The position numbers and the translations under genes are program-made. The notes beneath the pieces are model-generated. The model was not told where the DNA came from. It searched no databases and was given only the letters and a program-made list of their open reading frames with translations. DNA of 64,000 nucleotides, from NCBI GenBank assembly GCA_049513715.1, contig JBEKVV010000003.1:352001-416000 (forward strand), in the 5' to 3' direction. Below are positions 173-27,164 of this stretch, piece by piece. Each line of letters starts with the position of its first letter. Within the stretch, counting starts at the first letter, position 1. This stretch comes from Candidatus Bathyarchaeia archaeon. Lineage in GTDB: Archaea > Thermoproteota > Bathyarchaeia > 40CM-2-53-6.

Positions 173-256
173 TGAGTATAACTACGGGACTTATTCTCAT
201 TATCTAAGGGATAAGTATGAAATCGAACGCCCCATCCACTATATCTCGTGACTCCT

Positions 257-1486
257 ATGCCGCAAGCAAATGACCTGCAAGAACTGATTGAGAAGGATGC
301 GCGATATGTCGCTCAGATACTTCCCGGTAACAAGCGACCCATGGTCATGGAGGAAGGCCACGGAATCTACGTGAAAGACAGCTTGGGGAAAGATTACCTC
401 GATTGTACCGCTGGAATCTCCGTAAATAACCTGGGCCACAGTCACCCCAAAATACTAGAAGCCATTCGCACGCAATCCCAAAAGATTCTACACACATACC
501 CATTTGGAAATTTCATCTGCAGACCACAAGTCGAATTAGCAGAATTACTCGCCAAGATTACACCGGGACGATTATCAAGGAGCTTCTTCGTAAACAGTGG
601 AACTGAAGCCGTCGAAGGCTCCCTGAAACTGTCAAGAAAATACACTATGAAGAAGGTACTGATTTCATGTGAAAAGGCGTTTCACGGAAGAACATTCGGT
701 TCAGCGAGCGTGACTTGGAAGGAGATTTACCGAAAGCCCTTCGAACCCTTGCTCCCTGGCACGCAGTTTGTTCACTTTGGAGACGCTGACGCACTAGAAC
801 ATGCGATGACGGACGACACTGCGGCTTTCATTGTCGAACCCGTGCAAGGAGAGGCCGGGTTCATCGTTCCTCCCGACGACTACCTACCCAGAGTCAGAGA
901 AATCTGCTCCGACCATGGTGCCCTACTTATCTTAGATGAGATTCAGACAGCCTTCGGGAGAACTGGGAAGATGTTCGCCTGCCAACATTGGGGAGTAACA
1001 CCAGACATCATGGCAGTAGCAAAGGCGATAACATGTGGAGGCGTTCCGATGGGTGCCTTCATCTCAACCCCAGAAATAATGGATGCGTTCAGATGGCCGC
1101 CCCTCTCTCACACGACAACTTACGGTGGCCACGCCCTCGCATGTGCAGTTGCAAAGGCAGCCATAGAGGTGACGATCGCTGAAAAGCTGCCTGAACAGGC
1201 TGCCGAGAAAGGTGCCTACTTCAAGAAAAGACTGGTAGAGCTACAGAACGAGTTTCCAAACCTCATAAAGGAAATACGAGGGCTAGGCCTCATGTTGGGC
1301 ATCGCCTTCAGAGATACAGGTGTTGCAGACTCCTTCGTAGATGGATGCTTTGAGAAGGGCGTCATCGTCATTTGGACCATAAACTCAGCAAATGCAATAC
1401 GAATATCGCCACCACTAATCATAACGCGAGAACAGATCGACGAAGCAGTGTCAAGGTTCAGGCTGGTGCTGAAAGGCATTCGTTAG
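257..1486 (+). CDS. Class III PLP aminotransferase (acetylornithine/putrescine aminotransferase family)
   Basis: NSGTEAVE, AFHGRT, IVEPVQGEAG, DEIQTAFGRTG, AKAI (PLP Lys), TYGG. ATG at 257 preferred over GTG at 248. Confidence 0.92.
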   Translation: MPQANDLQELIEKDARYVAQILPGNKRPMVMEEGHGIYVKDSLGKDYLDCTAGISVNNLGHSHPKILEAIRTQSQKILHTYPFGNFICRPQVELAELLAKITPGRLSRSFFVNSGTEAVEGSLKLSRKYTMKKVLISCEKAFHGRTFGSASVTWKEIYRKPFEPLLPGTQFVHFGDADALEHAMTDDTAAFIVEPVQGEAGFIVPPDDYLPRVREICSDHGALLILDEIQTAFGRTGKMFACQHWGVTPDIMAVAKAITCGGVPMGAFISTPEIMDAFRWPPLSHTTTYGGHALACAVAKAAIEVTIAEKLPEQAAEKGAYFKKRLVELQNEFPNLIKEIRGLGLMLGIAFRDTGVADSFVDGCFEKGVIVIWTINSANAIRISPPLIITREQIDEAVSRFRLVLKGIR

Positions 1487-1506
1487 CTAAGCAAGAAAAG
1501 GAAAAC

Positions 1507-2460
1507 TTAGCCTGAAGTAAACACGTAGTCCTTGAAGCCTTTCTCGTGAAGATCCACTATTATTCCCCTCAGCACACCCTCCGAGTATTCACTCCCCGCA
1601 TTCAGACACAAGGTTCTACCAATTTTCGCACTCCCTTTGGATTCGTGAATGTGCCCGTGGAGCCCTAGTAGGGGTTGATACTTCTCAATAGCCTTTCTCA
1701 CCGCCGTTGAGCCCACATGATCCATCTTGAGCCCCCCTCGCTCCACGACAGGCCGTAAGGTGGCATCTAGTTTCGGCGCAACATCCAATTCAGTATCCAC
1801 CGGAGGGCAGTGCAAAGCGAAAATAGCATTCTTTGTGTTTTTCACACGAGAGGCCATGTCCTCTATTCGTTTCTCTAGGTCACTCTCCTCTATGTCTCTG
1901 GGACACTTCCAAGGGGTCATGTTGGCGTACCCAGTTGCAATCATCTCATGATGCGGATCAATCTCCGTGACCTTTCCCTCTGGATTGACCGCGAACTCTG
2001 ACTTCTCAAGAATAGCATCAATTTCGTGGCGATCGTCATTGCCTGGAACTATGTAGACCTTTATCCCTGTTCCCTTCAACTTCTCCCCAATAATCCCCAG
2101 CCATCGACCCAAAGTTTCGTTCATTAGTCTCGAAAATAGTGCGTCAACCTTGGCAGGGTCCGCGTTCAGTTCTTCCATTTCTTTCTGGGTCGTTCTGTAT
2201 GGATAGTATCCTGAATCTCTTATCATCTTCTCGAGCTTTAGTGCCTCTTCCTCGTTCTTCAGAATATTGTCTAGTCCCTGAAAATTCGCCGTGCGAGTTC
2301 CATCGGGCATCTTGACGAGTGGCACTATCATCTTGCCAGTTATGTCTCCACCAAATACAATCACGTCTGCCTTGTAGAACTTGCCCGCACTAACGAACTT
2401 CAAGAAGCAAAGTTCTGAGCCATGAATATCAGTCGTGAAATAGAGTCTAGTATTGACCAA
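1507..2460 (-). CDS. Calcineurin-like metallophosphoesterase (Icc-related)
   Basis: TDIHG, GGDITGK, PGNDD, LHCPP, LHGHIHE motifs. Confidence 0.88.
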   Translation of the reverse strand: MVNTRLYFTTDIHGSELCFLKFVSAGKFYKADVIVFGGDITGKMIVPLVKMPDGTRTANFQGLDNILKNEEEALKLEKMIRDSGYYPYRTTQKEMEELNADPAKVDALFSRLMNETLGRWLGIIGEKLKGTGIKVYIVPGNDDRHEIDAILEKSEFAVNPEGKVTEIDPHHEMIATGYANMTPWKCPRDIEESDLEKRIEDMASRVKNTKNAIFALHCPPVDTELDVAPKLDATLRPVVERGGLKMDHVGSTAVRKAIEKYQPLLGLHGHIHESKGSAKIGRTLCLNAGSEYSEGVLRGIIVDLHEKGFKDYVFTSG

Positions 2461-2651
2461 TTGCAGACTCCCCCACGCGCGCAGACGTTGAGCGCATATT
2501 AGCCTTTCGAACCTTCAATCCTTACAATCTATAAGTTAGGGACTCCTTGACTCATTGTTTCCCAAGGAAAAAACTGCAGAGAAATAACGCGTAGAGGAAA
2601 TCCGGAGAAACATTCGATTCGAGATTCTCAGATTTCATTTTGACAAGAATC

Positions 2652-2660
2652 ACTTATATA
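2652..2660 (+). promoter_or_regulatory. TATA-like box
   Basis: ACTTATATA about 35 nt upstream of ATG 2695; the same ACTTATAT occurs at 55512-55519 before the ylbE-like gene. Confidence 0.45.
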
Positions 2661-2694
2661 TCGTATTCCTGTGAAGTCGTCGCGTGGAATTCTA

Positions 2695-3537
2695 ATGCCG
2701 AAATACACGCCCCAAGACATGATTAGCGACAAGGGATACTTGGGTATGCTTTGGGACGTCGGGCTAAGAGTAAAACCTGACGAAAACCTTGGAAAGTACG
2801 CGATCGTATGGCGAGATGAGTTCGGCGAGAAGGGAAAACTTGCCGTAGACTACCTCAAGGATGCTAGGATGGTCCAAGACTTCAGGGGAAATACGACGTG
2901 GACGGGACTCTATGATGGAATCAGAGTCACAGTGGCAGCGACCAATTGGGGTTCGGCCGCTGCTGCAGTTGCAGTAGAAGAACTTGCTAATGCAGGAGTT
3001 GAAACGTTCATAAGATTCGGAACATGCGGATCCCTTCATAATTGGCTAAATCTCAATGACTTGGTCATAAGTGAGGGATTCGTCAGGGCAGACGGTGCGT
3101 CAGCCGAATACATACCTCTCGAATACCCGGCAATCTGCAACCTGGAAGTTACAAGGGCATTGGTTGACTCTGCCGAGAAACTCGGAGAGAAATATCACTT
3201 GGGGATCCTAAGAACTCACGATTCATACTACGTTGAAACCAACGCCGCGCTGAGCGACCCAACTGGAGGCGCTGGGCCAAGAGCAATGTCCCACGTCGAC
3301 AAGAGAATTGCGAGGACGTCGATATACGCCAAGGCGGGAGTACTTGCTGTGGACAACGAAGGAGCAGCGACTGTTGTGCCTGCGAGGCTTCGAGGACTCA
3401 AGAGTGGCTCCTTCCATTGCGTCACTGGCAACATGGCTACCAATGAAGAAGTTATCCCGCGAGACTGTGAACAGCGAATCAAATCATTATTCAAAGTCGG
3501 ATTTGAAGCAATCAAGAAACTCGAAAATAGGAAATGA
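2695..3537 (+). CDS. Nucleoside phosphorylase (uridine phosphorylase/PNP_UDP_1 family), divergent
   Basis: AVEEL..G..TFIRFGTCGSL, RADGASAEY..LEYPA, HLGILRTHDSYY motifs. Confidence 0.82.
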   Translation: MPKYTPQDMISDKGYLGMLWDVGLRVKPDENLGKYAIVWRDEFGEKGKLAVDYLKDARMVQDFRGNTTWTGLYDGIRVTVAATNWGSAAAAVAVEELANAGVETFIRFGTCGSLHNWLNLNDLVISEGFVRADGASAEYIPLEYPAICNLEVTRALVDSAEKLGEKYHLGILRTHDSYYVETNAALSDPTGGAGPRAMSHVDKRIARTSIYAKAGVLAVDNEGAATVVPARLRGLKSGSFHCVTGNMATNEEVIPRDCEQRIKSLFKVGFEAIKKLENRK

Positions 3538-3601
3538 GCGGCGGAACTAGCCGCCTCTCCCACCTTTCGCCACCAACGCAGAACCCGGAGGCGCGAACCT
3601 A

Positions 3602-4615
3602 TTGAAGGCTGCAGTTTTCTATGGACCAAGGAACATTAGACTTGAAGAACGTGCGAAACCTAAACTCGCAGACGATTCGATTTCGATAAGAGTGAAATGG
3701 AGCAGCCTTTGCGGAACGGACAACCACATATACCGTGGAAACTTCGACGTGAAGACCCCGCTAATTCTCGGACATGATTTCTCAGGAACTGTGGACGAGG
3801 TTGGGAGCAAGGTCACTAGACTATCTGTCGGAGACAAGGTTGTTGCTGAGCCGATTAGGTATTGCGGAACTTGCCCCACTTGCTTGAAGGGTAGGTACAC
3901 CATTTGCGAGAACAGAGCAATCATGGGGATACAGATCGACGGCTCCCTAGCTAAGTATGTAGTCGCTCCTGAGAAAAACGTCTTCGCGATACCAAACGGT
4001 GTTTCATTCCAAGAAGCAGCAACCATGGAGCCCGCCGCTGTGGCCCTCCATTCAATGGACTATGCAAAACCTGTGGCCGGCGAAACTGTGGTAATACTAG
4101 GGCAGGGACCAATTGGGCTTCTGCACACGCAGGTGGCCAGAATTTCGGGATTGACTGTAACAGCGGTAGACATCCTAGACCATCGCTTGGAGCTCGCGAA
4201 GAAGCTTGGGGCGGATTATGCGATAAACCCTTCCAAAGAAGACCTAGTGGGGAAAGTCAGATCCTTCACTAATAGAGGAGCCGACATCATTATCGATACA
4301 AGCGGATCGGTCAAGACGACTGAAATCACACCGTTCCTAGCCAGTCCTGCAGGCAGAATCATTGTCGTGGGCTCGTCCAAGGAGTTGATGACCCACGGTC
4401 CACCAGCAGAGATGATTTTGACTAAAGAACTGTCCATATACGGGGTCGCAGGAGCGCCTCTAAAGTATCCAAGGGCACTCGCGTTAGTTGGGAATAAGAA
4501 GCTTGACGTTAAGACGCTGATTACTCATAGAATCAAGCTTTCGATGATAAATGAGGCTTTCAGACTGTTCGACGATCCCAGAATGATTAAGACTTTAGTT
4601 GAGTCCTCTGGCTGA
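3602..4615 (+). CDS. Zn-dependent MDR alcohol dehydrogenase (sorbitol/threonine dehydrogenase-like)
   Basis: LCGTDNH, GHDFSG, structural Zn CGTCPTC..C, GQGPIG nucleotide-binding motif. Confidence 0.9.
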   Translation: MKAAVFYGPRNIRLEERAKPKLADDSISIRVKWSSLCGTDNHIYRGNFDVKTPLILGHDFSGTVDEVGSKVTRLSVGDKVVAEPIRYCGTCPTCLKGRYTICENRAIMGIQIDGSLAKYVVAPEKNVFAIPNGVSFQEAATMEPAAVALHSMDYAKPVAGETVVILGQGPIGLLHTQVARISGLTVTAVDILDHRLELAKKLGADYAINPSKEDLVGKVRSFTNRGADIIIDTSGSVKTTEITPFLASPAGRIIVVGSSKELMTHGPPAEMILTKELSIYGVAGAPLKYPRALALVGNKKLDVKTLITHRIKLSMINEAFRLFDDPRMIKTLVESSG

Positions 4616-4675: not shown

Positions 4676-5617
4676 TCAGAAAGGCGTGCCGCTGCCGACA
4701 TAGCACTTGATTTGATTTTGCTCGAAAATTCTGGCCACATGCATCATTTTGTCGTCCAAGGGAGCGGTGACGCTCCTGTACTTGTATTCCCAACCAAGCT
4801 GCTCGTACTTGGTTGTCCCTAACCTGTGAAAAGGAAGTAGGTTCACCTCCTTTTTCCTAATCTTCTTCATGAAAGTAGCCGTAGCTTTCATGTTCTCATC
4901 AGAGTCATTGAAACCAGGCACTACTGGAATACGGACGACAATTCTCGAATCGTTCCTTTGTGCGATTATGCCCTCTATGTTCTTGAGAATTAGCTCGTTG
5001 GTAACGCCTGTTCCTTCTCTATGCTTTTCTGGATCCATGTGTTTGATGTCAACGAAAACCCAATCAGCATAATTCAACGCTCTCTCCAAAATCTTTGGAG
5101 AAACATGCGCGCATGTCTCTATGGCTGTGTGAACGTAGGAATTGTAGAGCCTCTCAAGCATGGCAGTAGTGAATTCAGGTTGGGCTAGAGGTTCGCCGCC
5201 ACCGAACGTGACGCCGCCTCCTTGTCCCCAATAGGCCCTGTCTCTGGTCACGATCTCCATGGCTTCCTCTACGGTGACATCGCGGCCGACGACCCGTAGT
5301 GCTCCGTTGTAACAGCTGTTCACGCAGCTGAATTGGTGGCATTTTTCGCATTTTGACCAATCGAGGGTGATGGAATCTGCATTATTCGCCTTGCTGATAG
5401 CCCCGACGGGGCATGCTCCCACGCAGCTGTAGGTTTCTGCCTTGCATTTCCTTTGACTGTACATCAACTGAGGTTTGAACGATTGCCCTTCAGGGTTACA
5501 GCACCAGCTGCACTTGAGCGGGCACCCCTTCATGAAAAAGAGTGTTCTGCATCCGGGTCCGTCATGAACAGAGAAGCCCTGAACATCAAAAACAAGACCC
5601 CTCAGACTATGTGCCAT
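4676..5617 (-). CDS. Glycyl-radical enzyme activating enzyme (radical SAM with ferredoxin insert), HpdA-like
   Basis: HDGPG, GCPLKCSWCCNPEG (CxxxCxxC), Cys-rich ferredoxin insert, GGVTFGGGEP, IETC, VPGFND. Confidence 0.95.
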   Translation of the reverse strand: MAHSLRGLVFDVQGFSVHDGPGCRTLFFMKGCPLKCSWCCNPEGQSFKPQLMYSQRKCKAETYSCVGACPVGAISKANNADSITLDWSKCEKCHQFSCVNSCYNGALRVVGRDVTVEEAMEIVTRDRAYWGQGGGVTFGGGEPLAQPEFTTAMLERLYNSYVHTAIETCAHVSPKILERALNYADWVFVDIKHMDPEKHREGTGVTNELILKNIEGIIAQRNDSRIVVRIPVVPGFNDSDENMKATATFMKKIRKKEVNLLPFHRLGTTKYEQLGWEYKYRSVTAPLDDKMMHVARIFEQNQIKCYVGSGTPF

Positions 5618-5654
5618 GTTCGCTACGGACCCAGACCGTTCTTTGTAATCGACT

Positions 5655-5945
5655 TCACTCCCGGTCGTGTCGGGTTTTGGGCTCAGACTTCCACTCGAAT
5701 ATTTCGCATGTTCGTGTTCTGAGTTCGGGGAATGTCACGGTTATTCCTTTGCAGAGGCCCAGGGCATCAGTTTTGCTCGTGTAATTTGCGCAGAACTTAC
5801 ATTTCTTGGTTGGGACGCATTCAGTGCATGCATTTTCGTCTGTCAGAACGGAGCGCTTGTTGAGGTGACAGATTCCCTTGAAGACGTCTACTGGGGTGAA
5901 ATAGTCGCAGTCGCCACATTTCGAAACTTGGAGTTGTGTCAGCAT
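5655..5945 (-). CDS. Fe-S small subunit of GRE decarboxylase, HpdC-like
   Basis: Duplicated CxxC..GxC..C unit (CGDC..GIC..AC / CKFC..GLC..TC); lies between the GRE and its activase and abuts the GRE stop. Confidence 0.88.
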   Translation of the reverse strand: MLTQLQVSKCGDCDYFTPVDVFKGICHLNKRSVLTDENACTECVPTKKCKFCANYTSKTDALGLCKGITVTFPELRTRTCEIFEWKSEPKTRHDRE

Positions 5946-8687
5946 TTACATCAGCTCTTCGTATTCGGTTCGTGCGATGATCTCGTCCTGAATGGGTTTA
6001 GGAAGCTCTACCCAGTAATGGGTGAACCCGGCTACTCTGACGAGGAGGTCTCTGTAGTTTTCAGGATGAGCCTGGGCCTCCCTGAGCATCCTGGTGTCGA
6101 CCACATTGAACTGAATATGAAAGCCTCCCTTCCTCATGTATCCTCTAATCAGTTCGAGGAGTTTTCTTGCTCCTTCCCTTCCTCGAATTGCTGATGGATG
6201 TACCTTGAGATTCATCTGTGTGCACTGAGATTCAGAATGGTCGAAGCATGTGGCAGAGTTGAACAGGGCGTAGGGTCCATTGAGATCTGTACCGGGATAA
6301 GCGGATAAGGAAGCGTCAGCGTATGTGGTGCCGTGCAATCGTCCGTCAGGTGTGGCAATCGCTGCGGCTCCCATCGGACCATGAGTTGACACGGAAAGTT
6401 GAAGCGCATACAGTGGTTTGCCGTACAGGGATTTGTACTCGTGCGGGACCGAGCAGTAGAATTGCTCGAACGTCTTCAGGATTTCATCTGCGAAGGCATC
6501 ATCGTTTCCATATTTTGGTGCATTCAAACACCGGTAATGGGTCTCATTCCATTCTTGTGAAATTCTCTCTTGTTCCAGAAGTGAGTACGAGCCTACTTCT
6601 TCCGCGGTCTTGTACCCGAAATTACTGCGCAGTGCTTCTTTCAAATGATCGAGTGTCATCGATTTGTCTGTGTAAACGTTCTTTTTCAGCGAAGCCAGCG
6701 AGTTAACCAAGTTCATTCCGCCACAGATGTTGACGCTGAAGGTTCTGTTGTACCTGGACCCCAGCATCCCGATATGCATGCCTTTGTCGAGGCAATCGGG
6801 TTTCAATATTGAGTTGACTAATGGTGGGGTTAGTTTTCTCCAGATATCATGCTGGACATTGTTGCAGCGTATGAGGACGTCCATGATTCTTCTGAAATAG
6901 GCCTTGTATGCATCCCAGACTTCCTCGTAAGTCTCCAACTTGTAGCCGTGTGGCGGCAACACACGTCTACCTGTCCTCTGGTCAACTCCATCAAAGAGCA
7001 CTAGCTCAAGGATCTTTGGAAGGTTTAGGAAGTGGACTCCCACATCGGTTGCCGGTGCTGCCCCGCCTCTGGGAATAGTGTACTTCTTCCCGTTCAGTTC
7101 TAAGTCGACCCAAGTGCAGGCAGATGTCTGCAGGCAACCGCCTATAGCGACAGCCCTCGCTTCCTCCAGAGTCATTCCTTCTGGTCCGAAGTTCTTAAGG
7201 AGGAATTCTGTGGCAATTCGGTTGTTGACCCACGCAGGATAACCTGTCCCCGTCTTATTGCACTCAATGGCTTTCATGAGGAACTCTTCAGGCAATACCT
7301 CATCGTAGAGCAAGGTGAAGGTAGGTTGCGGGGTTTCGCAGGTGATACCAGATTCTATCATTAGCATTTCAAGTTCGTTTGCGGCGCTTTGACCGTCTTT
7401 TGTTAAGCCTCCCAAACTGACGTTGTTGAAGGTGCTTCCTGACTGTATTCCCTCAATGACGGATTTGGGTCCGAACAGGTCGATTTCGGTGAATTTCATT
7501 CTCATGCATTCTAGAAGCTCCATGGTTCGGTCTTGATCAATTCTCCCCGCGTCGACATCTTCCTTCCACCAAGGGTAGAGGACCTGCCCCAGCCTGCCCG
7601 GCGCTAAGCCAGAAAAATTGTCTTCGTTCAATACAGCGATGTGGAAAGTCCAGCACAACTGCAATGCCTCACGGAACGTCCGGGGCGGCTTTGATGATAC
7701 CCATTTCAGGATATCACGAATCTCTTCGTACTCTCTTCTCTGCTCCGGGTCCTTCTCTGTCCTCGCTAGTCTCTGCGCCTCGTCTGCAAAGTTGAGGATC
7801 CATTTCTTGATACCTTCGAGGATGATTGTTGCGGCTTTGTAGAAGTATAGGCGGTCCATTCCGTTTATTCCGTCATTCCCCGGATCGCCGCCGACTTCTG
7901 CCATCTTCTTCCTGCAAATCTCGATGATGCCGTCGATTCCGAATTGCAGGGGGTAGTAGTAGCTGATCACTTCCCTTCCTTGTGGTAATGTGTATCCTGA
8001 ATCGTACATGCAGACTAAGCTGCGCATTATCGCTTCTTTTTCGTCGTACCCCTGAACCAGCTGCTCATACTGATGCGAAACATCTTCGACGGACTTGTCA
8101 TCCCACATCGTGCTGATTTCTTTGAGGATTGGGAATTCCTCTTTTCTTAAACCGAATTTTCCTGCAATCGGAATTACGTTTCCAGTTGCGATGGTTACGT
8201 TGCCCCCGCCCTTCGCCACCTTTACTACTTCTTCAGCCGCCAGACCTCTCTTCTTAGCTTCCTCGTACCTCTTCTCAGTCTCGATAAGATAGGTTTGCGA
8301 CAGCCATGGCATGGGGAAGGACCCTCTCAAGTAAACAGTCCTCTCCATCACGAGCAGCTCTCCCTGGAAGATGCTTGGCGTTAGGTGGGAGTATGCGTAA
8401 CTGAGAGCCTTTGCCCTCCTGACTAGTGGAATCTCACCTTCAAGTTCATTCCATCTCCTCGTATACCAGTAAGGGAACTCAACGCTCGCTGAAGACTTTG
8501 TCTGGAGATAGCGGTCTCTGATGTTTCTGGCACGAAGGGTCGGTTGCTTCTTGGTTTCGCGCGACCCGATTTGCTCGGAAGCCTGTTTTCCGTATTGAAA
8601 GGATAGTTTGAGGCCTCTGCTCACTTTACTCTCCGCAAGTCTTTCATGCGTTTCCTTTTGCTTTGTTTCCTCTAACATTCCAATCAC
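5946..8687 (-). CDS. Glycyl-radical enzyme, 4-hydroxyphenylacetate decarboxylase (HpdB)-like large subunit with altered active site
   Basis: RVAGF glycyl loop (Gly887), GGCL Cys loop (Cys518), HpdB-type blocks GGGNVT, PQGREV, GRLGQVL, TFNN, GVHF, SVSTHGP. Start may be ATG 8678. Confidence 0.93.
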   Translation of the reverse strand: MIGMLEETKQKETHERLAESKVSRGLKLSFQYGKQASEQIGSRETKKQPTLRARNIRDRYLQTKSSASVEFPYWYTRRWNELEGEIPLVRRAKALSYAYSHLTPSIFQGELLVMERTVYLRGSFPMPWLSQTYLIETEKRYEEAKKRGLAAEEVVKVAKGGGNVTIATGNVIPIAGKFGLRKEEFPILKEISTMWDDKSVEDVSHQYEQLVQGYDEKEAIMRSLVCMYDSGYTLPQGREVISYYYPLQFGIDGIIEICRKKMAEVGGDPGNDGINGMDRLYFYKAATIILEGIKKWILNFADEAQRLARTEKDPEQRREYEEIRDILKWVSSKPPRTFREALQLCWTFHIAVLNEDNFSGLAPGRLGQVLYPWWKEDVDAGRIDQDRTMELLECMRMKFTEIDLFGPKSVIEGIQSGSTFNNVSLGGLTKDGQSAANELEMLMIESGITCETPQPTFTLLYDEVLPEEFLMKAIECNKTGTGYPAWVNNRIATEFLLKNFGPEGMTLEEARAVAIGGCLQTSACTWVDLELNGKKYTIPRGGAAPATDVGVHFLNLPKILELVLFDGVDQRTGRRVLPPHGYKLETYEEVWDAYKAYFRRIMDVLIRCNNVQHDIWRKLTPPLVNSILKPDCLDKGMHIGMLGSRYNRTFSVNICGGMNLVNSLASLKKNVYTDKSMTLDHLKEALRSNFGYKTAEEVGSYSLLEQERISQEWNETHYRCLNAPKYGNDDAFADEILKTFEQFYCSVPHEYKSLYGKPLYALQLSVSTHGPMGAAAIATPDGRLHGTTYADASLSAYPGTDLNGPYALFNSATCFDHSESQCTQMNLKVHPSAIRGREGARKLLELIRGYMRKGGFHIQFNVVDTRMLREAQAHPENYRDLLVRVAGFTHYWVELPKPIQDEIIARTEYEELM

Positions 8688-8695
8688 GTTCTAAT

Positions 8696-10981
8696 TCAGC
8701 AATATTCGGTCTTTCCTTCATTTAGGGCGGCCAGCACTTTGGCCGGTGATATTGGCAAGGACCTGAATCTGATGCCTATTGCGTCTTTTATCGCATTAGC
8801 TATGACTGGTGCCACCGGGTGCAATGATGCCTCGCTTATGCTCTTTCCTCCCACTCCAGATGGCTCGTTGGTTTCAACCAGTATTACTTGGGCTTCTGGC
8901 ATGTCTGAGACTGTAGGAATCTTGTAGTCCGTTAGGTTTGAATTGAGAACCCGTCCTCGTTCATCGAACTTCACTTCTTCCATCAAGGTCTGGCCGATTC
9001 CCTGCCCAATCGCGCCATACACCTGTCCTTTCGCTCCAGCCGGGTAGATTGCCTTCCCCAGATCTTGGGCCGCGACGTATCGGGTTACGAACACTTGGCC
9101 GGTGAGCATGTCTACATCTACTTCTGCGAAATGTGCTCCGAATGGTGGTGGATTGTCGGGCGGTTCAGCTGCCAGCGAGACGACCAAGCTCTTGTTTAGA
9201 TGGAATCTGGCAAACAGTCCAAGCTCTGAAAGAGGAAGGTGAACAGTGGGATCTTGTGTCGAGACCAGATGTTTGCCTTGAATCTTCAACGACTCGGGGT
9301 TCTTGTTCAGCATCTCTCCAGCTGCCTTAAGGACCTGTTCTCTCAGTTGTTCGCAGGCTGACTTTATGATACTACCAACAACATACGTCCCTCGACTGGC
9401 ATGGATCGCGCCTTCGAAAAGGGTTGTATCTGTATTGCCAGTCTCAAGGTCGATCATGTCGGCGTCGGTTCCGAGTGTTTCTTGCGCAATATTGCGATAT
9501 ACAGTGTGTTGGCCGCATCCCATGTCTATCGCGGCAGTTAGCACGATGAACTTTCCATCCTCATTGAACTTCACGGTCACGCCAGAATGCTCAATTATCT
9601 TTTCCACCGTTGACTTGGTTCCAGTTCCCGATCCTCTTATGGTCTGAAAAGCGACGCCCCTACCTCTTCTCCTGTTTGGATCAAGTGGCTGCTGAATCGG
9701 TTTACCCCATCCGAATGCTTCGCCTGCTCTTCTCGCCGATTCTTCCAGCCCACAAGAGTTAATCGTGTAGCCACTTCGGGGGTTCACGTCGCCAAGTTTG
9801 AATGAATTCTTGAGCCTGAATTCGATTTGGTCAAAACCCATTTTGTCTGCGATATCGGTCATCTGGCTTTCTATAGCGAAGGCACATTGTGCGCCACCGT
9901 ATCCTCTCATCGCTCCCGGAGAGTACGTGTTGGTGTAAGTTGCATAGGCTTCGAAAAGGCGGTGGGGAGCATTGTAAGCCGCATCAAAGTACATACCTCC
10001 AACGATTGCAACGCTTGGCCCATGCGTCGCGTAGGCTCCTGTGTTGGCAACACATTTGCAGTAACGAGCAGTGATCGTTCCATCCTTCTTGACTCCTGTC
10101 TTAATCGTCAGGCGCATGTCATGCCGCGAGGTCGTGACGAAGACCTCAGATCTGTTAAGCCCAAGCCTCACAGGCTTCCGAGCCTTCCCCGCGAGAAGGG
10201 CGCAAATCGGTTCAACATCGCTCATCTGCAGTTTTGATCCGAAAGAACCTCCCAGGTATGTGTTGTGGACCCTTATCGTAGAGACCGGGAGAGCTAGAGC
10301 TTCAGACAGGCGTTCCCTCAGAAGGAATATACTCTGGGTTGATGACCAAATGTTCAGCTTCCCTTTCTCATCCCAGTGAGCGATCGCACAATGGGCCTCA
10401 AGCGGAACTTGGTTCTGCCTCTGCGTTCTGTATTCGTCCTCAAAAATCTCATCAGCGAGTCGAAAACCTTCGTCGATGTTACCATAGCGTATGCTCATGG
10501 GGTTGCCGCCCTTGGCATCCCATGCCTCGGCGACATTCGACTTCAACTCAGTCCTTACTTTTGGTGCGCCTGGTTTGAGTGCTTCAACTGGGTCTGTAAC
10601 ATACGGTAAGTTCTGATAATCGACATGGATTCTCTCTGTTGCCTCCTCAGCCAATTCCTGAGAAGTCGCTGCTACCGCCGCAATTGGTTCGCCGACGTAG
10701 CATACCTCCTTCCTCATAATCGATTTATCTTTGGGCAGAAGGCCGGCTTCGGGGTACGGGGCGTTGAAAATCGGGTTGTACCTCGTATCGGGCACGTCGG
10801 CAAATGTAACGATGGCCTTGACGCCTTCCAACTTCAAGGCCTCTGACGTGTCAATTGATTTTAGTATGGCATGGGGTTTGGTGCTTCTCAGAATCGCACC
10901 GTATAGCATCCCTGGAAGCTGCATGTCCGAGGTAAACTTCAGCTTTCCAGTTACCTTCTGAACAGCCTCAACTCTCGACAA
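8696..10981 (-). CDS. Xanthine dehydrogenase-family Mo-cofactor large subunit
   Basis: KVTG N-terminus, STQS, GGSFGSK, AMRGYG, ASRG, DYKIPT, KSISE (catalytic Glu). Confidence 0.92.
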   Translation of the reverse strand: MSRVEAVQKVTGKLKFTSDMQLPGMLYGAILRSTKPHAILKSIDTSEALKLEGVKAIVTFADVPDTRYNPIFNAPYPEAGLLPKDKSIMRKEVCYVGEPIAAVAATSQELAEEATERIHVDYQNLPYVTDPVEALKPGAPKVRTELKSNVAEAWDAKGGNPMSIRYGNIDEGFRLADEIFEDEYRTQRQNQVPLEAHCAIAHWDEKGKLNIWSSTQSIFLLRERLSEALALPVSTIRVHNTYLGGSFGSKLQMSDVEPICALLAGKARKPVRLGLNRSEVFVTTSRHDMRLTIKTGVKKDGTITARYCKCVANTGAYATHGPSVAIVGGMYFDAAYNAPHRLFEAYATYTNTYSPGAMRGYGGAQCAFAIESQMTDIADKMGFDQIEFRLKNSFKLGDVNPRSGYTINSCGLEESARRAGEAFGWGKPIQQPLDPNRRRGRGVAFQTIRGSGTGTKSTVEKIIEHSGVTVKFNEDGKFIVLTAAIDMGCGQHTVYRNIAQETLGTDADMIDLETGNTDTTLFEGAIHASRGTYVVGSIIKSACEQLREQVLKAAGEMLNKNPESLKIQGKHLVSTQDPTVHLPLSELGLFARFHLNKSLVVSLAAEPPDNPPPFGAHFAEVDVDMLTGQVFVTRYVAAQDLGKAIYPAGAKGQVYGAIGQGIGQTLMEEVKFDERGRVLNSNLTDYKIPTVSDMPEAQVILVETNEPSGVGGKSISEASLHPVAPVIANAIKDAIGIRFRSLPISPAKVLAALNEGKTEYC

Positions 10982-11100: not shown

Positions 11101-11979
11101 ATGAGGGCAACAGTACCATTAGTTGACTATTACACTCCAAAGACAGTCGCGGAGACCGTGAGACTTCTCACGAAGCTGGAAAAAGCCAGCATTTTGGCTG
11201 GTGGGACGGATTATGTTCCTGCAACTAGGATGAAGGGATTCAGGCCGAAGAATCTAGTCTCATTGAAAAACCTCGGAAAGCACCTGCGCTATATTTCCTT
11301 CAAGAATGGGGTCATTAAGATTGGGGCCCTCACACGAATGAGGGATATAGAGAAATCGGAAGTAATACGGAAGCATGCGCCCCACCTTTACGAGGCAGCA
11401 GCGCAGGTGGGAGCCATCCCGATTAGGAACAGGGCTACGCTCGGAGGGAACCTATGTAACGCCAGTCCGGCCGCTGATACTGCTCCTCCATTGCTGACGC
11501 TGGACTCTGTCGTTGAGATTGTTGGACCTCGCAAGAAAAGAACCGTTTCCATCGACGACTTCTTTGTGGGCGTTGGAAAAACTGTATTGAAGAAGGGCGA
11601 GATTGTGAGCGGGATCTCGTTTCGACCGTGGAAGGGGGGCTTCGCATTCATGAAGATTGGGCGACGGCAGGGTGAGGATATTGCAGTAGCATCGGCAGCT
11701 GTTTCAATCAAGATGAAGGGCGAGAAGATTTCGGATGTGAAGATAGCTCTGGGAAGTGTTGCTCCAACACCCATTAGAGCACGTAAAGCAGAAGCCGACT
11801 TGTTTGGGAAAGAGCCAACCAAGGAAGCATTGGAATCTGCAGCCAGGAAAGCTGCGGAGGAATCTAGCCCCATAGATGATGTTAGAGCCAGCGCTGACTA
11901 TCGTAGGAAAATGGTAAAAGTACTGGTAACATCGACTCTCTCACAGGCAGTTAAGAAAGCAAAGGGTGATTCATCATGA
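11101..11979 (+). CDS. Xanthine dehydrogenase-family FAD (medium) subunit
   Basis: LAGGTD, IRNRATLGGNLCNASPAAD, PIDDVRASADYR. Confidence 0.93.
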   Translation: MRATVPLVDYYTPKTVAETVRLLTKLEKASILAGGTDYVPATRMKGFRPKNLVSLKNLGKHLRYISFKNGVIKIGALTRMRDIEKSEVIRKHAPHLYEAAAQVGAIPIRNRATLGGNLCNASPAADTAPPLLTLDSVVEIVGPRKKRTVSIDDFFVGVGKTVLKKGEIVSGISFRPWKGGFAFMKIGRRQGEDIAVASAAVSIKMKGEKISDVKIALGSVAPTPIRARKAEADLFGKEPTKEALESAARKAAEESSPIDDVRASADYRRKMVKVLVTSTLSQAVKKAKGDSS

Positions 11980-12458
11980 ACATAGATCTCAAAATTAACG
12001 GTGAAACCGTTAGGCTGGACATACCGCCAAACGAAATTCTGCTGGACACACTGAGAACCAGAATTGGTTTGACCGGCACCAAAGATGTGTGCAGGACGGG
12101 AGATTGCGGGGCCTGCACTGTGCTGGTTGATGGTGAAGCCGTACACTCATGCTTGGTATTGACAGTCGAAGTCCATGGATCCAGAATTCTTACGGTGGAG
12201 GGACTTGCCGAGAACGACAAGCTCCACCCATTGCAGCAGGCGTTTATTGAAGAAGACGCCACACACTGCGGGTACTGCACACCAGGAATTTTGATGGCTG
12301 GCGTGGCGTTGCTTAATGAAAACAGCAACCCCAACCGTAGCGACGTTGAGGAGGCATTGAAAGGAAACCTATGCCGGTGCGGGACCTACTATGACGCAGT
12401 AAACGCCATTCTGAAGGCTAGCCAGAAGATTGGAAAGAGCAAATCGAAGACTCACTGA
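11976..12458 (+). CDS. Xanthine dehydrogenase-family 2Fe-2S (small) subunit
   Basis: CRTGDCGACT..SC, CGYCTPG, NLCRCG; ATGA overlap with the FAD subunit gene. Confidence 0.95.
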   Translation: MNIDLKINGETVRLDIPPNEILLDTLRTRIGLTGTKDVCRTGDCGACTVLVDGEAVHSCLVLTVEVHGSRILTVEGLAENDKLHPLQQAFIEEDATHCGYCTPGILMAGVALLNENSNPNRSDVEEALKGNLCRCGTYYDAVNAILKASQKIGKSKSKTH

Positions 12459-12515: not shown

Positions 12516-13976
12516 ATGGCAGATTTGATTCTGAAGAATGGAAAACTCGTCCTACCTTCCGGCGTAATGGAGGGGGGTGTTTCAATCGCGGATGGAGTCA
12601 TAGAGAAAATCGCGAAGGATGCAAATCTCCCAAAGGGTGACAAGGAAATCGATCTGCAGGGCAAATTGGTTCTCCCTGGAGCAGTTGATATCCACACGCA
12701 TCCTGGGGGGAAACATCCACTCGGTGACGACTTCAAAACAGAGACTCCAGGCGCGTTGATGGGAGGCGTCACTACAATGGGCGGAATAGTCCGGGTTCCC
12801 AGAATGGGGCAACCGTTCAAAGAGGACACGGACCCCGCGGAGGTTGTGTCATGGTTTGACGTTTTTGAGTTGGGTAAGAGAACTGCTCAGACGAATTCTT
12901 GCGTCGACTTCTTCTTCATCTTCACTTTGAACTCGATGCAACACGCTGAGGAAATCCCCAAGTACGTTCGAGAGCTGGGTGTTGCAGCTTTCAAGTATCA
13001 TGGAAACCTGAAGAACTTAGCAGACCACCCTATGGGACAAAAGTGGGCAAGGAGAATGGCGTTGCCTGCACCTTACGATGACAGTCTCGCCTTCCGCGCC
13101 ATGGAACAGGTGGGAAAGACAAAGAAGGCGATTCTACTACTGCACTGTGAGAACTCAGAGATATCGAAGCTATTCAGAGAACGCGTGAGGTCGCAGGGAA
13201 GGGCGGATCCTGAAGCATGGACTGAAACTCTACCGGGCTTCTTGGAAGCTGAACACGTCAGGAGATACTCGTACCTTGCCAAAGCGACTGGCGCCCCAAT
13301 TCATGTGGTGCACATAACTTCGCGCGAAGGCCTTGAGGAAACGTTTGAGGCGAAGAGCCAAGGAGTCAAACTAACGGTCGAGACTTGCCCGCAATACTTG
13401 ATGGTAGACCCCGCGAAAGCGGGATACTTGGGCAAACTCAACCCTCCTCTCCGAAAACAGGAAGACCGAGAAGCACTCTGGAAAGGTGTGAAGGATGGGT
13501 GGGTCGATTCGATTGGGACGGACCATGTGGTGAGCAACAAATACGAAAAACTGGTTTGGGGAGACGGCGCACCTCCCGGAGGAGACCCTGCCTCAAACAT
13601 ATGGTTCACCGGTTCTGGAAGCGTAGGCACACAAACGATGCCCATAACGATGTTCTGGGAGGGTTACGGTAAAAGAGGGATGTCCCTCAGCAGATTGGTT
13701 GAACTAATCTCCACAAACCCCGCAAAAATTGTGAGAATATACCCGAAGAAGGGCGTCATTGAGACTGGCTCGGATGCCGACCTGATGATAATCGACCAGC
13801 AGAAAGAAGGTAAGATTACGGCCGAGTGGATCAAATCCTATGGAGATTTCACCCTCTTCGAAGGAATGACAGGGAAAGGATGGCCATACATGACTATCCT
13901 CAGGGGGCAAATCGCAATGCAGGAAGGAGACCTGCAGGTAAACCCAGGGTACGGCCAATTCGTGAGATGCGTATGA
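12516..13976 (+). CDS. Cyclic amidohydrolase (dihydropyrimidinase/hydantoinase/allantoinase family)
   Basis: DIHTH, FK (carbamylated Lys), HCEN, VVHITS, ETCPQYL, NPPLR, GTDH, GSDADL. Confidence 0.88.
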   Translation: MADLILKNGKLVLPSGVMEGGVSIADGVIEKIAKDANLPKGDKEIDLQGKLVLPGAVDIHTHPGGKHPLGDDFKTETPGALMGGVTTMGGIVRVPRMGQPFKEDTDPAEVVSWFDVFELGKRTAQTNSCVDFFFIFTLNSMQHAEEIPKYVRELGVAAFKYHGNLKNLADHPMGQKWARRMALPAPYDDSLAFRAMEQVGKTKKAILLLHCENSEISKLFRERVRSQGRADPEAWTETLPGFLEAEHVRRYSYLAKATGAPIHVVHITSREGLEETFEAKSQGVKLTVETCPQYLMVDPAKAGYLGKLNPPLRKQEDREALWKGVKDGWVDSIGTDHVVSNKYEKLVWGDGAPPGGDPASNIWFTGSGSVGTQTMPITMFWEGYGKRGMSLSRLVELISTNPAKIVRIYPKKGVIETGSDADLMIIDQQKEGKITAEWIKSYGDFTLFEGMTGKGWPYMTILRGQIAMQEGDLQVNPGYGQFVRCV

Positions 13977-15379
13977 CTACGATAATCAAGAACGCCGTAA
14001 TCTACACTAACGACCCGTCTGTAGGAACAATCTGGGACGGAGCCGTCGTCGTTGACGGCCCCAAAATAGTTGCCGTTGGAAAAACGGAAGAAATCCTGCG
14101 AAAACATCCCACCAAGGATAATGTGATAGACGCAAAATGGAAACTCGTCATCCCAGGACTAATCGACGCACACATGCACCTTGATTCAGCTTACCTGCGG
14201 GGCCTCATTCCGCCAAAATGGATGGGATGGCTAACAACGTACTTTGGTTGGTACTTCGACATAATGACTGAGGAGGACTTCTACTATTCCAGCCTGTTCA
14301 GCATTGGAAAGAGACTCCTGACGGGCACAACCACCATTGTTGACTCAGGCCCTCTTCCTGGCTTCGAAAAAGCAGCCATACGGGCAGTCGAAGCCAGCGG
14401 TGCAAGAGCCAACTTGAACAGAATAACGATGGATGTCTACGATGAGGTCCTAGGAAAAGATGGCTTTTCCGGAAAACACAGAGAGGATACGGAGACGGCA
14501 CTCAAGAATGGTCGCGAGTTCGTCCAGAAATACAAAGACCGCTTGGGCCGGGTCAAGACCGGGCTTTGCATGATGCAGGTCCCAACTTCAAGCGAGGAGT
14601 TAGGAAGAGGGGCACGAAAGATAGTAGATGAGTTTGGAGGTACATTACATACCCACGCGGGTGTGCATGGCGAGCTCCTTGAGAAGACCAAGAAACTTTA
14701 TGGAATGACAGACATAGAGTACCTTGACAAAACGAATCTACTATGTGACAAATTGACGGCCGCGCATATGGGTTGGGTGACAGATGACGAGATAGCCCTT
14801 GTGGCCAAGAAGATGGTGAACGTTGCTCACTGCCCAACCTCCACAACGATCAATGGAAAGGGCATCTTGTCTAAGGGCAATATTGTGAAAATGGATCGAT
14901 CGGGCGTCAACTTGGCACTGGGTACCGATGAATTAGATATCACAGATATCGTGAGGGTCATGTTTGCCGTATTGATTCACAGAGACGTATGGATGGACTC
15001 TACTCTCTTCCCCCTTGATAAGGTGCTAAACATGGCTACGGCTAATGGTGCCAAAGCAGTTGGAATGAGAGACAAACTCGGGAGTATCTCGCCAGGGAAG
15101 CTAGCAGACATGGTCCTCCTCGATCTCAAGAACCCCGATTTGCTGCCAGTCTATGACTATTCTTTGCTACCGAACCTGATAACTTCAGCATCAGGCTCTA
15201 GTGTTGACACAGTTCTTGTGAATGGGGAAGTTGTCGTAGAGAACAGGCGGATAAAGACTTTCGACATGGATAAGGTCTCGACGGAAGTGCAGCGGCGAGC
15301 AAAGAGATACGTAGAATCCGCCGTCGAAAGAGGAATGCATGCAAAAGGAGCCCAGCTCTCACCTCCCTACCCGTTGTAA
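13973..15379 (+). CDS. Amidohydrolase (MtaD/SsnA-like fold), atypical active site
   Basis: PGLIDAHMH, GTTT, AAH, AHCP, LGTD, GKLAD. True start ATG 13973 (ATGA overlap), not 13826. Confidence 0.85.
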   Translation: MTTIIKNAVIYTNDPSVGTIWDGAVVVDGPKIVAVGKTEEILRKHPTKDNVIDAKWKLVIPGLIDAHMHLDSAYLRGLIPPKWMGWLTTYFGWYFDIMTEEDFYYSSLFSIGKRLLTGTTTIVDSGPLPGFEKAAIRAVEASGARANLNRITMDVYDEVLGKDGFSGKHREDTETALKNGREFVQKYKDRLGRVKTGLCMMQVPTSSEELGRGARKIVDEFGGTLHTHAGVHGELLEKTKKLYGMTDIEYLDKTNLLCDKLTAAHMGWVTDDEIALVAKKMVNVAHCPTSTTINGKGILSKGNIVKMDRSGVNLALGTDELDITDIVRVMFAVLIHRDVWMDSTLFPLDKVLNMATANGAKAVGMRDKLGSISPGKLADMVLLDLKNPDLLPVYDYSLLPNLITSASGSSVDTVLVNGEVVVENRRIKTFDMDKVSTEVQRRAKRYVESAVERGMHAKGAQLSPPYPL

Positions 15380-23037: not shown

Positions 23038-23862
23038 GTGAAAGTTGATGTAGCCGCAGTCTCACCGCTGAAAAAACCGACCGACGAGGAAAACATACCG
23101 AGAGCAATTCAATATCTCGACGAAGCCGTGCGGCAAGGAGCGAAAATCATTTGTTTTCCAGAAAATTATCTATACTCAGATATTTCCAGAGTTCCAAAAA
23201 GCGACATCGAATCATATCCTGGTGTTTTGCAGCTACTTAACAAGGCACGAGAGAGCGGAGTATACGTCATTCCCGGCACGATGGCGGAGAGAACTAATTA
23301 CGGGAACAAGTTCTACAATACTGCTCTCCTTCTGGGGCCAAATGGAGCAGTCATCGGAAAATACAGGAAGACCCATCTCGCTGTGGAAGAGAGCGAAAAG
23401 CAGAGAATACCCGGTGGAAAGGAGGAAGTTCTCAAAGTGTTCAAAACTGAATATGGGAATATGGGCATCCATATTTGCTACGAGATTTGTTTTCCAGAAG
23501 TCGCGCGCATAACGGCTCTAGCGGGGGCAGAAATGATGTTCTGGCCAAGCGGGGGCAAATACTACGAAATTCGCGAGACTTGGCGACATTTAATTTGGGC
23601 GAGGGCAATCGAGAACCTCGCGTACGTTGTGAGCTGCTCAAACATATTTGGGATGGAACGTGGCATTACAATCATTGCCGGGCCCGAGGAAGTCCTAGCC
23701 GAACGGGACAACGAAGGCGTCGTCACAGCAACCCTAGACATCGACCGAATCCACTGGTTGAGGAAGACACCGGAATCATTCGACATACCCAAACCCTTCA
23801 AATGCGTACCCGGCACACTCATGGACCGGGAGCCAGATCTGTATCACGCTCTGATTCAGTAG
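23038..23862 (+). CDS. Carbon-nitrogen hydrolase (nitrilase superfamily)
   Basis: E-K-C triad: FPE, YRK, ICYE; ARAIEN. Confidence 0.9.
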   Translation: MKVDVAAVSPLKKPTDEENIPRAIQYLDEAVRQGAKIICFPENYLYSDISRVPKSDIESYPGVLQLLNKARESGVYVIPGTMAERTNYGNKFYNTALLLGPNGAVIGKYRKTHLAVEESEKQRIPGGKEEVLKVFKTEYGNMGIHICYEICFPEVARITALAGAEMMFWPSGGKYYEIRETWRHLIWARAIENLAYVVSCSNIFGMERGITIIAGPEEVLAERDNEGVVTATLDIDRIHWLRKTPESFDIPKPFKCVPGTLMDREPDLYHALIQ

Positions 23863-23891
23863 CCATCTGAGTTCTCTTCGGCGAACTGGTT

Positions 23892-27110: not shown

Positions 27111-27164
27111 GTACCTATCAACGGAATCGGTAATAATCCATTGTCTGAAGGTAGGCATACTACA

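Follow-up and report, generated by a model that had tools for sequence, protein, structure and literature searches.

What does a glycyl-radical enzyme (GRE) do if it has the architecture of 4-hydroxyphenylacetate decarboxylase (HPAD) and neither of the two glutamates that are proposed to be essential for HPAD's Kolbe-type mechanism (Glu505 and Glu637; PMC13450708)? This question is raised by a stretch of 64,000 nucleotides from a Candidatus Bathyarchaeia archaeon (the window), whose minus strand carries four closely packed open reading frames (ORFs). These encode a molybdenum (Mo) subunit, the GRE large subunit, a Cys-rich protein, and an activase. We will argue that the GRE belongs to a clade whose substrate is likely to be something other than 4-hydroxyphenylacetate (4-HPA). 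As to what it acts on instead, we somewhat favor an arylacetate-type decarboxylation in an island of N-heterocycle catabolism: the aryl acetate would be polar and not phenolic (N-heteroaryl or amino-aryl), and the chemistry would be like that of phenylacetate decarboxylase (PAD). Papers are cited by their PubMed Central identifiers. The GRE genes and the two codons at issue are:

5946 to 8687, minus strand: GRE large subunit, HPAD-type, of the Gln/Asn clade described below; 913 amino acids from the GTG at 8687
5655 to 5945, minus strand: small (gamma) subunit, 96 amino acids (NF033716, PF18671, 2y8n_B)
4676 to 5617, minus strand: glycyl-radical activating enzyme, radical SAM, 313 amino acids (TIGR02494, NF033717)
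7128 to 7130, minus strand: codon CAG for Gln520, at the position of Glu505 of the HPAD from Clostridium scatologenes (CsHPAD), in the Cys loop GGCLQ
6729 to 6731, minus strand: codon AAC for Asn653, at the position of CsHPAD Glu637, in the loop YNRTFSVNICG

The large subunit is a member of the GRE superfamily. It matches PF02901 (PFL-like, 459 bits) and PF01228 (Gly_radical, 94 bits), and it combines a PFL-like barrel with a C-terminal glycyl radical domain that has the RVxG motif (RVAGF, which carries Gly887). Both the catalytic Cys518 and a cognate radical-SAM activase are present. The large subunit scores 1365 bits against NF033715, the model for the HPAD large subunit (cutoff 1150), and the small subunit scores 63.3 bits against the corresponding model NF033716 (cutoff 50). 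The model for indoleacetate decarboxylase (IAD), NF033718, gives the large subunit 742.9 bits against a cutoff of 1100, which places it outside that family. The small subunit also matches PF18671 and 2y8n_B (E = 0.002), and its eight cysteines are invariant across six loci. Its gene lies between those for the large subunit and the activase, as expected for HPAD. The activase contains a CPLKCSWC motif (CX3CX2C) and two Cys-rich ferredoxin-like stretches; it scores 344 bits against TIGR02494 (cutoff 174) and 408.6 bits against the HPAD activase model NF033717, slightly under the cutoff of 420. The original prediction had described a complete set of large subunit, small subunit, and activase with intact radical residues, and we found all three ORFs on the minus strand, with Gly887 and Cys518 aligned to Gly873 and Cys503 of CsHPAD. 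The best reading of these sequences is a functional three-component HPAD architecture, in which a catalytic alpha subunit is joined by a gamma subunit with Fe-S centers and by an activase of the radical-SAM type. The true start of the large subunit is probably the ATG at 8676-8678, which gives 910 amino acids, because an identical public cluster (P0005) has 910 amino acids. We use the 913-residue numbering throughout, and CsHPAD positions are counted along the phmmer alignment to 2y8n_A.

When we compared the large subunit to solved structures with phmmer, residues 53-910 aligned to CsHPAD (2y8n_A) with 974 bits over 858 residues, and the identity of the two proteins is 49-55%. The positions that matter are:

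Gly887, at CsHPAD Gly873: the radical glycine, retained
Cys518, at CsHPAD Cys503: the catalytic cysteine, retained
His552, at CsHPAD His536: retained
Ser359, at CsHPAD Ser344: retained
Arg238, at CsHPAD Arg223: retained
Gln520, at CsHPAD Glu505: substituted
Asn653, at CsHPAD Glu637: substituted
Tyr228, at CsHPAD Phe214: substituted (CMFDS to CMYDS)
Gln415, at CsHPAD Leu400: substituted (GVLSG to GIQSG)
Asp548, at CsHPAD Gly532: substituted
Glu412, at CsHPAD Gly397: substituted
His890, at CsHPAD Gln876: substituted

The two glutamates that define HPAD are thus both replaced: Glu505 of the GGCxE loop, which relays protons to Cys503, and Glu637, the residue that holds the phenolic hydroxyl and takes its proton. 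These replacements had been proposed from the letters alone, along with retention of His536 and a shift of other pocket positions (Phe214 to Tyr228 and Leu400 to Gln415) toward polarity; the alignment to 2y8n_A bears out each of them, and we checked both codons. The equivalents of His536, Ser344, and Arg223 are kept. Ser344 of CsHPAD presumably binds the carboxylate of the substrate. The conserved Arg, which in IAD binds the substrate carboxylate (PMC9248008), is retained in both IAD and the window GRE. In sum, scaffold and small subunit are retained, as are the residues that align to the carboxylate side of the CsHPAD site; amides now stand in for the residues that read and deprotonate the phenol, and an Asp, a Glu, a Tyr, and a His are new. 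An AlphaFold2 (AF2) model, for which the input alignment had 29 rows (mean pLDDT 75.8, pTM 0.83), has 2y8n_A and 2yaj_C as its best Foldseek matches (TM 0.86/0.90, 49% identity).

Are these substitutions peculiar to one genome? Among 8000 scored candidates, 1003 homologous clusters passed E <= 1e-50; of the best 120 of these, 114 have Glu at both positions (Glu/Glu), and six, including the window's own cluster, have Gln and Asn (Gln/Asn). The other five Gln/Asn clusters (P0006, P0007, P0008, P0009, and P0030) are 80-63% identical to the window's protein. In a FastTree phylogeny of 127 sequences, the six Gln/Asn sequences are monophyletic (SH-like support 0.97) and are the sister of 115 Glu/Glu-type sequences (support 0.84). 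Six more distant proteins (P0126, P0127, P0129, P0130, P0131, and P0134; 47-37% identity) all retain the Glu of the Cys loop. Some public names in this family look like annotation errors: P0006, a member of the Gln/Asn clade, is called "4-hydroxyphenylacetate decarboxylase large subunit," and a Glu/Glu homolog, P0070, is called "MFS transporter."

We considered a position to be clade-specific if it is fixed in the six Gln/Asn clusters and the same residue occurs in at most 2 of the 114 Glu/Glu proteins. By this definition, 19 of the 913 positions set the clade apart. Ten of these (Y228, A362, E412, I414, Q415, S418, Q520, N653, C822, and H890) are at positions that are invariant in all 114 Glu/Glu proteins; D548 and L764, which we count with them to make twelve, are at positions that are 98-99% conserved. 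Most of the clade-specific positions are in the segments that carry Phe214, Ser344, Leu400, Cys503/Glu505, His536, Glu637, and Gly873 of CsHPAD. This pattern looks like a concerted rebuilding of the active site rather than drift.

To find more members, we searched 185,579 species genomes and a metagenome collection for a DNA pattern that encodes the motif at Gln415, which is specific to the clade. There was one match in the species genomes (locus L003) and 12 in the metagenomes (L004-L015, where L015 is the window's own contig). L003 is the GRE locus of G036, a genome from the same family as the window's, and L003, L013, and L016 are identical or nearly so. Ten related loci hold full-length GRE ORFs (887-903 amino acids), and all ten retain Gln520, Asn653, Asp548, His552, Tyr228, Glu412, and Gln415, of which all but Gln415 lay outside the search pattern. 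In five pairs of loci, dN/dS is 0.026-0.065; in the near-identical pair L003/L013, it is 0.146. Relative to the window's copy, dS is saturated, and the diagnostic residues are all retained between subclades. The Gln/Asn clade is under strong purifying selection. The original prediction would have been in trouble if the substitutions were private to this genome and accompanied by decay, and six clusters, ten full ORFs, and low dN/dS speak to the opposite. Because the Gln/Asn form is not a private, decaying copy, the substrate is likely to be other than 4-HPA.

An HPAD-type gene is present in 2 of 61 relatives and in 2 of a sample of 401 genomes across the class; in both cases these are the window's genome and G036. 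All 22 of the other genomes from the same genus lack it. The HPAD-type GRE is therefore a rare accessory trait in the class. The window's genome also encodes a second GRE, from an unrelated clade (G000:C5:147605-149362, L002); its open frame has 791 amino acids and is 36% identical to our query over query residues 285-910. We found no description of the Gln/Asn clade in the literature that is available without subscription and that we saw in part. As judged from its diagnostic residues, the clade is distinct from the p-cresol-forming enzymes and is uncharacterized so far.

The genes around the GRE offer another clue. Those nearest to it are:

8696 to 10981, minus strand: xanthine-dehydrogenase-family Mo-binding subunit (Pfam MoCoBD_1/2 and hammerhead)
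11101 to 11979, plus strand: FAD subunit of the Mo enzyme, CutM/CoxM-like, with no HcrB-type Fe-S insertion
11976 to 12458, plus strand: [2Fe-2S] subunit of the Mo enzyme
12516 to 13976, plus strand: amidohydrolase A, similar to hydantoinase, dihydropyrimidinase, or allantoinase (TIGR02033, 261 bits, below cutoff)
13826 to 15379, plus strand: amidohydrolase B, a TRZ/ATZ, 8-oxoguanine-deaminase, or SsnA-like aminohydrolase
15438 to 16664, plus strand: M20 (ArgE/DapE/YgeY-like) hydrolase

The gene for the Mo subunit ends 8 nucleotides upstream of the gene for the GRE large subunit, on the same strand. The trio belongs to the Mo-hydroxylase family, and the Mo subunit retains the family's conserved active-site Glu. 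The Mo subunit's best solved relative is the alpha subunit of 4-hydroxybenzoyl-CoA reductase (1rm6_A, 331 bits), and it falls under the cutoffs of the specific equivalogs (591 bits against 780 for XdhA and 503 against 995 for 4-hydroxybenzoyl-CoA reductase alpha). We considered whether this might be a dehydroxylase of the 4-hydroxybenzoyl-CoA reductase type. The FAD subunit has 292 amino acids and aligns to HcrB only over 117-275 versus 153-312. Because it is CutM/CoxM-like and lacks the extra segment in the N-terminal half of HcrB (the reductase's beta subunit), we set this idea aside and read the enzyme as hydroxylase-type.

Using tblastn, we found an ortholog of the Mo subunit (73-75% identity) adjoining the GRE in 9 of 13 loci other than the window's own (L003, L004, L006, L007, L010, L012, L013, L014, and L016); L008 and L009 end at the GRE gene and so are uninformative. 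The FAD and [2Fe-2S] subunits have orthologs in 8 loci each (54-59% and 70-74%). Among 60 relatives, the ortholog of the Mo subunit (74%) is found only in G036, and all other matches are at 42% identity or below. At L005 (5236-13839), the place of the Mo enzyme is taken by a truncated alcohol-dehydrogenase fragment, an aldehyde:ferredoxin oxidoreductase (AOR), a class-III aminotransferase, an ECF-type transporter (CbiQ and two ATPases), and a fragment of an IS110-family transposase, which suggests that this locus was rearranged.

Amidohydrolase A matches the hydantoinase structures 1gkr_A and 1k1d_A, and tblastn finds orthologs of it (67-73%) in 9 loci, including the divergent L011. Amidohydrolase B has orthologs (62-72%) in 7 loci. 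Its longest ORF shares 151 nucleotides (13826-13976) with the end of amidohydrolase A; the true start is probably near 13970, because family matches begin near residue 50 of that ORF. In L011, whose GRE is the most divergent (63%), the two amidohydrolases and then a PnrA/Bmp-type ABC transporter lie directly upstream of the GRE. The M20 hydrolase is present in the window only: tblastn found no ortholog in the other GRE loci. The original prediction was to be checked by asking whether Gln/Asn variants form a conserved clade with the same neighbors, and this is what the monophyletic group and its shared Mo enzyme and amidohydrolases amount to. It also described a nucleobase-catabolic neighborhood, which is real: with a Mo hydroxylase, a hydantoinase-like enzyme, and a deaminase-like enzyme, the neighborhood of the GRE is, by its enzyme families, one of nucleobase or N-heterocycle catabolism.

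How does this system compare with known ones? PMC13450708 (June 2026) counts four GRE decarboxylases (HPAD, PAD, IAD, and AAD), all of which act on products of aromatic amino acids, and describes all functionally characterized PFL-like GREs as bacterial. The closest to ours is HPAD (CsdBC/HpdBC with its activase; 2Y8N/2YAJ), which has the same three-gene architecture and the same fold. The radical Gly and Cys, the equivalents of His536, Ser344, and Arg223, and an Fe-S small subunit are common to both. In contrast, the window's clade is fixed for Glu505 to Gln, Glu637 to Asn, Phe214 to Tyr, Leu400 to Gln, Gly532 to Asp, Gly397 to Glu, and Gln876 to His, and the window GRE is archaeal, with a Mo hydroxylase and amidohydrolases as neighbors. 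Also, HPAD gamma is described with one cluster bound by three Cys and one His (PMC13450708), whereas the window's small subunit has eight invariant Cys.

PAD (PhdB), as the papers describe it, shares two features with the window GRE: a Cys-x-Gln loop and the absence of Glu637. Its essential residues are Gln484 (in the Cys loop), Tyr691, and Trp495 (PMC13450708), and Glu637 is absent from it (PMC13232127). However, PAD is not among the GREs for which the excerpts of PMC13450708 list small subunits (only HPAD, BSS, and MASS), while the window's set has one, and the polar pocket predicted for the window GRE would not suit phenylacetate. IAD (OsIAD/OuIAD) is an aryl-acetate decarboxylase in which the Glu637 and Leu400 positions have changed for another ring: it has Leu616 for Glu637 and Ala396 for Leu400 (PMC6181972). 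Unlike the window GRE, which has Gln there, IAD retains an essential Glu502 (PMC9248008), and it lacks a small subunit. As for the neighbors, an XDH (xanthine dehydrogenase) homolog, the amidohydrolase SsnA, a hydantoinase, and the hydrolase YgeY are part of an anaerobic purine-ring pathway in E. coli (PMC12507026). The reductive uric-acid cluster that encodes it (XdhD-YgfM, YgfK, SsnA, HyuA, and YgeY) and the window's cluster have the same kinds of enzymes: an XDH homolog, SsnA-like and hydantoinase-like amidohydrolases, and a YgeY-like M20 hydrolase, all of which score below equivalog cutoffs. In contrast to the E. coli cluster, we saw no YgfK, YgeW, or YgeX in the window's cluster, and the E. 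coli pathway as described in the excerpts of PMC12507026 has no GRE step.

With both of the proton-handling glutamates replaced (Gln520 and Asn653), the window GRE is unlikely to follow HPAD's Kolbe-type route, which depends on the phenol. Hydrogen-atom transfer is proposed for PAD and IAD (PMC13450708), and because PAD works with Gln in its Cys loop and without Glu637, decarboxylation by hydrogen-atom transfer would still be the simplest chemistry by analogy. By the same token, the original prediction of a new subclass that does not form p-cresol needs to be divided. The subclade is there, it is under selection, and its substrate is likely not 4-HPA; the loss of both glutamates by itself implies no new reaction, because PAD has an essential Gln484 and lacks Glu637. 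In the mechanism that we propose, the activase would install a radical on Gly887, which would give rise to a thiyl radical on Cys518. By analogy to PAD and IAD, this thiyl radical would attack the aryl acetate at its methylene carbon and abstract a hydrogen atom there, CO2 would leave, and the product radical would recover a hydrogen from Cys518. A pocket formed by Tyr228, Glu412, Gln415, Asp548, His552, Asn653, and His890, as placed by alignment to CsHPAD, would bind a non-phenolic ring that is rich in hydrogen-bond donors and acceptors, which points to an N-heteroaryl or amino-aryl acetate. The GRE would work in a catabolic island, with the dedicated Mo hydroxylase and the deaminase-like and hydantoinase-like, ring-opening amidohydrolases as its partners, and the N-heterocyclic or amino-aryl acetate would be formed or consumed in their pathway.

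Several observations weigh against decarboxylation of a polar aryl acetate. Judged purely by score, both the large and the small subunit qualify as 4-HPA decarboxylase under NCBI's equivalog thresholds. PAD's own proton donor is unknown (PMC13450708). Also, the E502Q variant of IAD, which was made to mimic PAD, lost skatole formation (PMC9248008); because this change abolishes activity, Gln at the Cys-loop site is not generally tolerated. Our placement of the pocket comes from the alignment to CsHPAD and from published descriptions of a few residues. We set the AF2 model aside for pocket geometry because several of the loops that changed have a pLDDT under 50 in it (224-234, 401-416, 762-799, and 861-886 in the 910-residue form). 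Finally, L005 and L011, which are adequately flanked, have no Mo enzyme within the DNA examined, and the near-identical loci (L003, L013, and L016) make the synteny counts overstate independence.

The GRE might instead perform another radical reaction on an N-heterocyclic intermediate, such as cleavage of a C-N or C-C bond, an isomerization, or the activation of a ring methyl group. The HPAD scaffold would then be used with a Cys loop that is not acidic, like that of the X-succinate synthases. Both of HPAD's acid/base residues are lost, the genes to which the GRE is tightly coupled encode a Mo hydroxylase and ring-opening amidohydrolases and not the fermentation of aromatic amino acids, and small Fe-S subunits are common to HPAD and the X-succinate synthases (PMC13450708). 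Many GRE families with other chemistry have residues other than Glu after the catalytic Cys, according to a rough table from pairwise BLAST of 150 distant representatives, in which residues near gaps are misplaced (for instance, P0127 has GGCLQ in the table and GGCLE in the MAFFT alignment). On the other hand, the window's protein is 49-55% identical to CsHPAD over its whole length and is sister to the HPAD clade, it retains the equivalents of Ser344 and Arg223, and PAD, a known decarboxylase, already functions with Gln at the Cys-loop site. We consider another reaction to be unlikely.

We give a lower probability to an ordinary substrate, that is, decarboxylation of 4-HPA to p-cresol or of phenylacetate to toluene, with the acid/base duties moved to His890, Asp548, and Glu412. 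These three residues do appear exactly where Glu505 and Glu637 vanish, NF033715 (1365 bits) and NF033716 (63 bits) are both over their equivalog cutoffs, the public name of P0006 agrees, and PAD takes both phenylacetate and 4-HPA (PMC13232127). But Phe to Tyr, Leu to Gln, Glu to Asn, and Ser to Asp shift together toward polarity at positions that are conserved in the Glu/Glu proteins, the neighbors are enzymes of N-heterocycle metabolism, and deprotonation coupled to Glu637 is central to the turnover of 4-HPA, according to computation cited in PMC9248008. The NCBIfam name of 4-HPA decarboxylase is probably wrong for this GRE. That the gene is an inactive or decaying copy would account for the loss of two residues that are deemed essential in HPAD and for the gene's scattered presence in the class (2 of the 401 sampled genomes). 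We reject this as highly improbable: ORFs are full in all 10 related loci, dN/dS is 0.03-0.15 with saturated dS, the diagnostic residues are retained, and the partner small subunit (with its 8 invariant Cys) and the activase are conserved.

If the GRE decarboxylates a polar aryl acetate, then which one? The wider island includes:

248 to 1486, plus strand: class-III aminotransferase
1507 to 2460, minus strand: metallophosphoesterase
2671 to 3537, plus strand: uridine-phosphorylase-like gene
3602 to 4615, plus strand: Zn-dependent alcohol/polyol dehydrogenase
23038 to 23862, plus strand: CN-hydrolase
23892 to 25199, minus strand: UbiD-family decarboxylase
25378 to 26199, plus strand: CN-hydrolase

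Orthologs of the flanking module at 248-4615 (66-82% identity) are clustered on G036's GRE contig (L025). The cluster of flank orthologs in G036 (60-82%) comprises two class-III aminotransferases, the metallophosphoesterase, the uridine-phosphorylase-like protein, and the Zn-dehydrogenase, as well as an AOR, a short-chain dehydrogenase/reductase, a TIM-barrel protein, and a ferredoxin. From the group at 23038-26199, a pair of orthologs (80%/70%) is found in L009 at a distance of 4 kb from the GRE trio, and a 75% ortholog is found in L024 of G036; CN-hydrolases are also present in L003, L013, and L014. Downstream of the activase in L003 and L014 are a TrmB regulator, two isochorismatase-family hydrolases, a PTPS/QueD-like protein, a CN-hydrolase, an AOR, a DUF1989 protein, and a deaminase-like amidohydrolase. 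In L003, L006, L013, and L014, the module of PTPS-like protein, AOR, DUF1989, and amidohydrolase shows synteny with the GRE cluster; in the window's genome it is 12-20 kb upstream of the window, at 61-70% identity to L003. We asked if the window's own TrmB (27141-27968) is an ortholog of the TrmB that follows the activase in L003, L005, L009, and L014, and tblastn (1e-20, 50% coverage) gave no match.

A match to the equivalog for QueG (epoxyqueuosine reductase; 323.6 bits against a cutoff of 200) lies 12 kb upstream of the window, on the plus strand (G000:C3:339004-339990, or L020:6980-8032), back-to-back with the PTPS/QueD-like gene. Archaea are not known to make queuosine. Only three of the 61 relatives have a match to QueG: G046 and the two GRE-bearing genomes, which are the window's own and G036; in G036, QueG is on the same contig as the GRE, about 42 kb away.

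The window further has two Mo-hydroxylase trios, two Bmp-type ABC transporters, five amidohydrolases, and homologs of AllG and AllH. The two trios, which are of the xanthine-dehydrogenase type (42726-46413 and 46584-50383), follow a CoxG-like gene (region 42217-50383), so that, with the GRE-linked set, there are three Mo-hydroxylase sets within 64 kb. The third trio is directly followed by genes for the large subunit of a methylmalonyl-CoA mutase and for an epimerase-like protein with a glyoxalase fold (50483-52516). The two AllG homologs are in the regions 29691-30947 and 55473-57755, and the second is followed by an AllH homolog (AllG and AllH being oxamate carbamoyltransferase subunits); a CoA-ligase-like gene is near the AllG homologs. 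An allantoinase-like amidohydrolase (31339-32778) scores 360.4 against TIGR03178, barely above the cutoff of 357.85.

One speculative idea, to which we assign a low probability, is that the GRE is a pyrimidin-5-yl-acetate decarboxylase in an anaerobic pathway for degrading 7-deazaguanines (queuine, preQ, or the archaeosine base). A nucleoside phosphorylase would release the base, and the class-III aminotransferase, AOR, CN-hydrolase or amidase, and UbiD would trim its side chains. The Mo enzyme would then hydroxylate the pyrrole carbon beside the nitrogen, and the hydantoinase-like amidohydrolase would open the resulting lactam to give a 2-amino-4-oxopyrimidine with -CH2-COOH at C5. The GRE would convert this group to a methyl, and deaminase-like enzymes and further hydrolases would finish the ring. 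T-fold proteins bind 2-amino-4-oxopyrimidines, and DUF1989 proteins act on carboxyguanidine. Hints in this direction come from the genes for QueG and the QueD-like protein, from the nucleoside phosphorylase and the transporter, and from the guanine/8-oxoguanine-deaminase-like enzymes, and the new Asp548 could read the 2-amino group. We found no description of a 7-deazaguanine-degrading pathway with a radical enzyme in the non-subscription literature that we saw in part. On an equal footing are candidates that would fit parts of the island: 5-carboxymethyl-uracil or -cytosine, with tRNA as the source; 4-aminophenylacetate, derived from methanopterin through its aryl-ribitol; and imidazole-4-acetate. 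The hydroxypyridyl-, imidazolyl-, and pyrimidinyl-acetates and the 5-carboxymethyluracil named in the original prediction are all compatible with this context, which favors none of them over the others. With 5-carboxymethyl-uracil, the product would be thymine, which would pair with an XDH-family thymine dehydrogenase; such enzymes exist.

If our preferred reading, the decarboxylation of a polar aryl acetate, is correct, then this clade would be a fifth type of glycyl-radical decarboxylase and the first from an archaeon, and its substrate would be polar and probably a heterocycle. The equivalog models and public names that label the clade as p-cresol-forming would inflate the potential for p-cresol formation in metagenome surveys. 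The clade is also a natural experiment on a disputed mechanism, as it has the HPAD scaffold without either glutamate and with a PAD-like Gln, and it can be used to test if a few residues set the choice between the Kolbe-type route and hydrogen-atom transfer. For the organisms themselves, it could tie radical decarboxylation to the anaerobic breakdown of N-heterocycles, whether nucleobases or cofactors, in sediment Bathyarchaeia.

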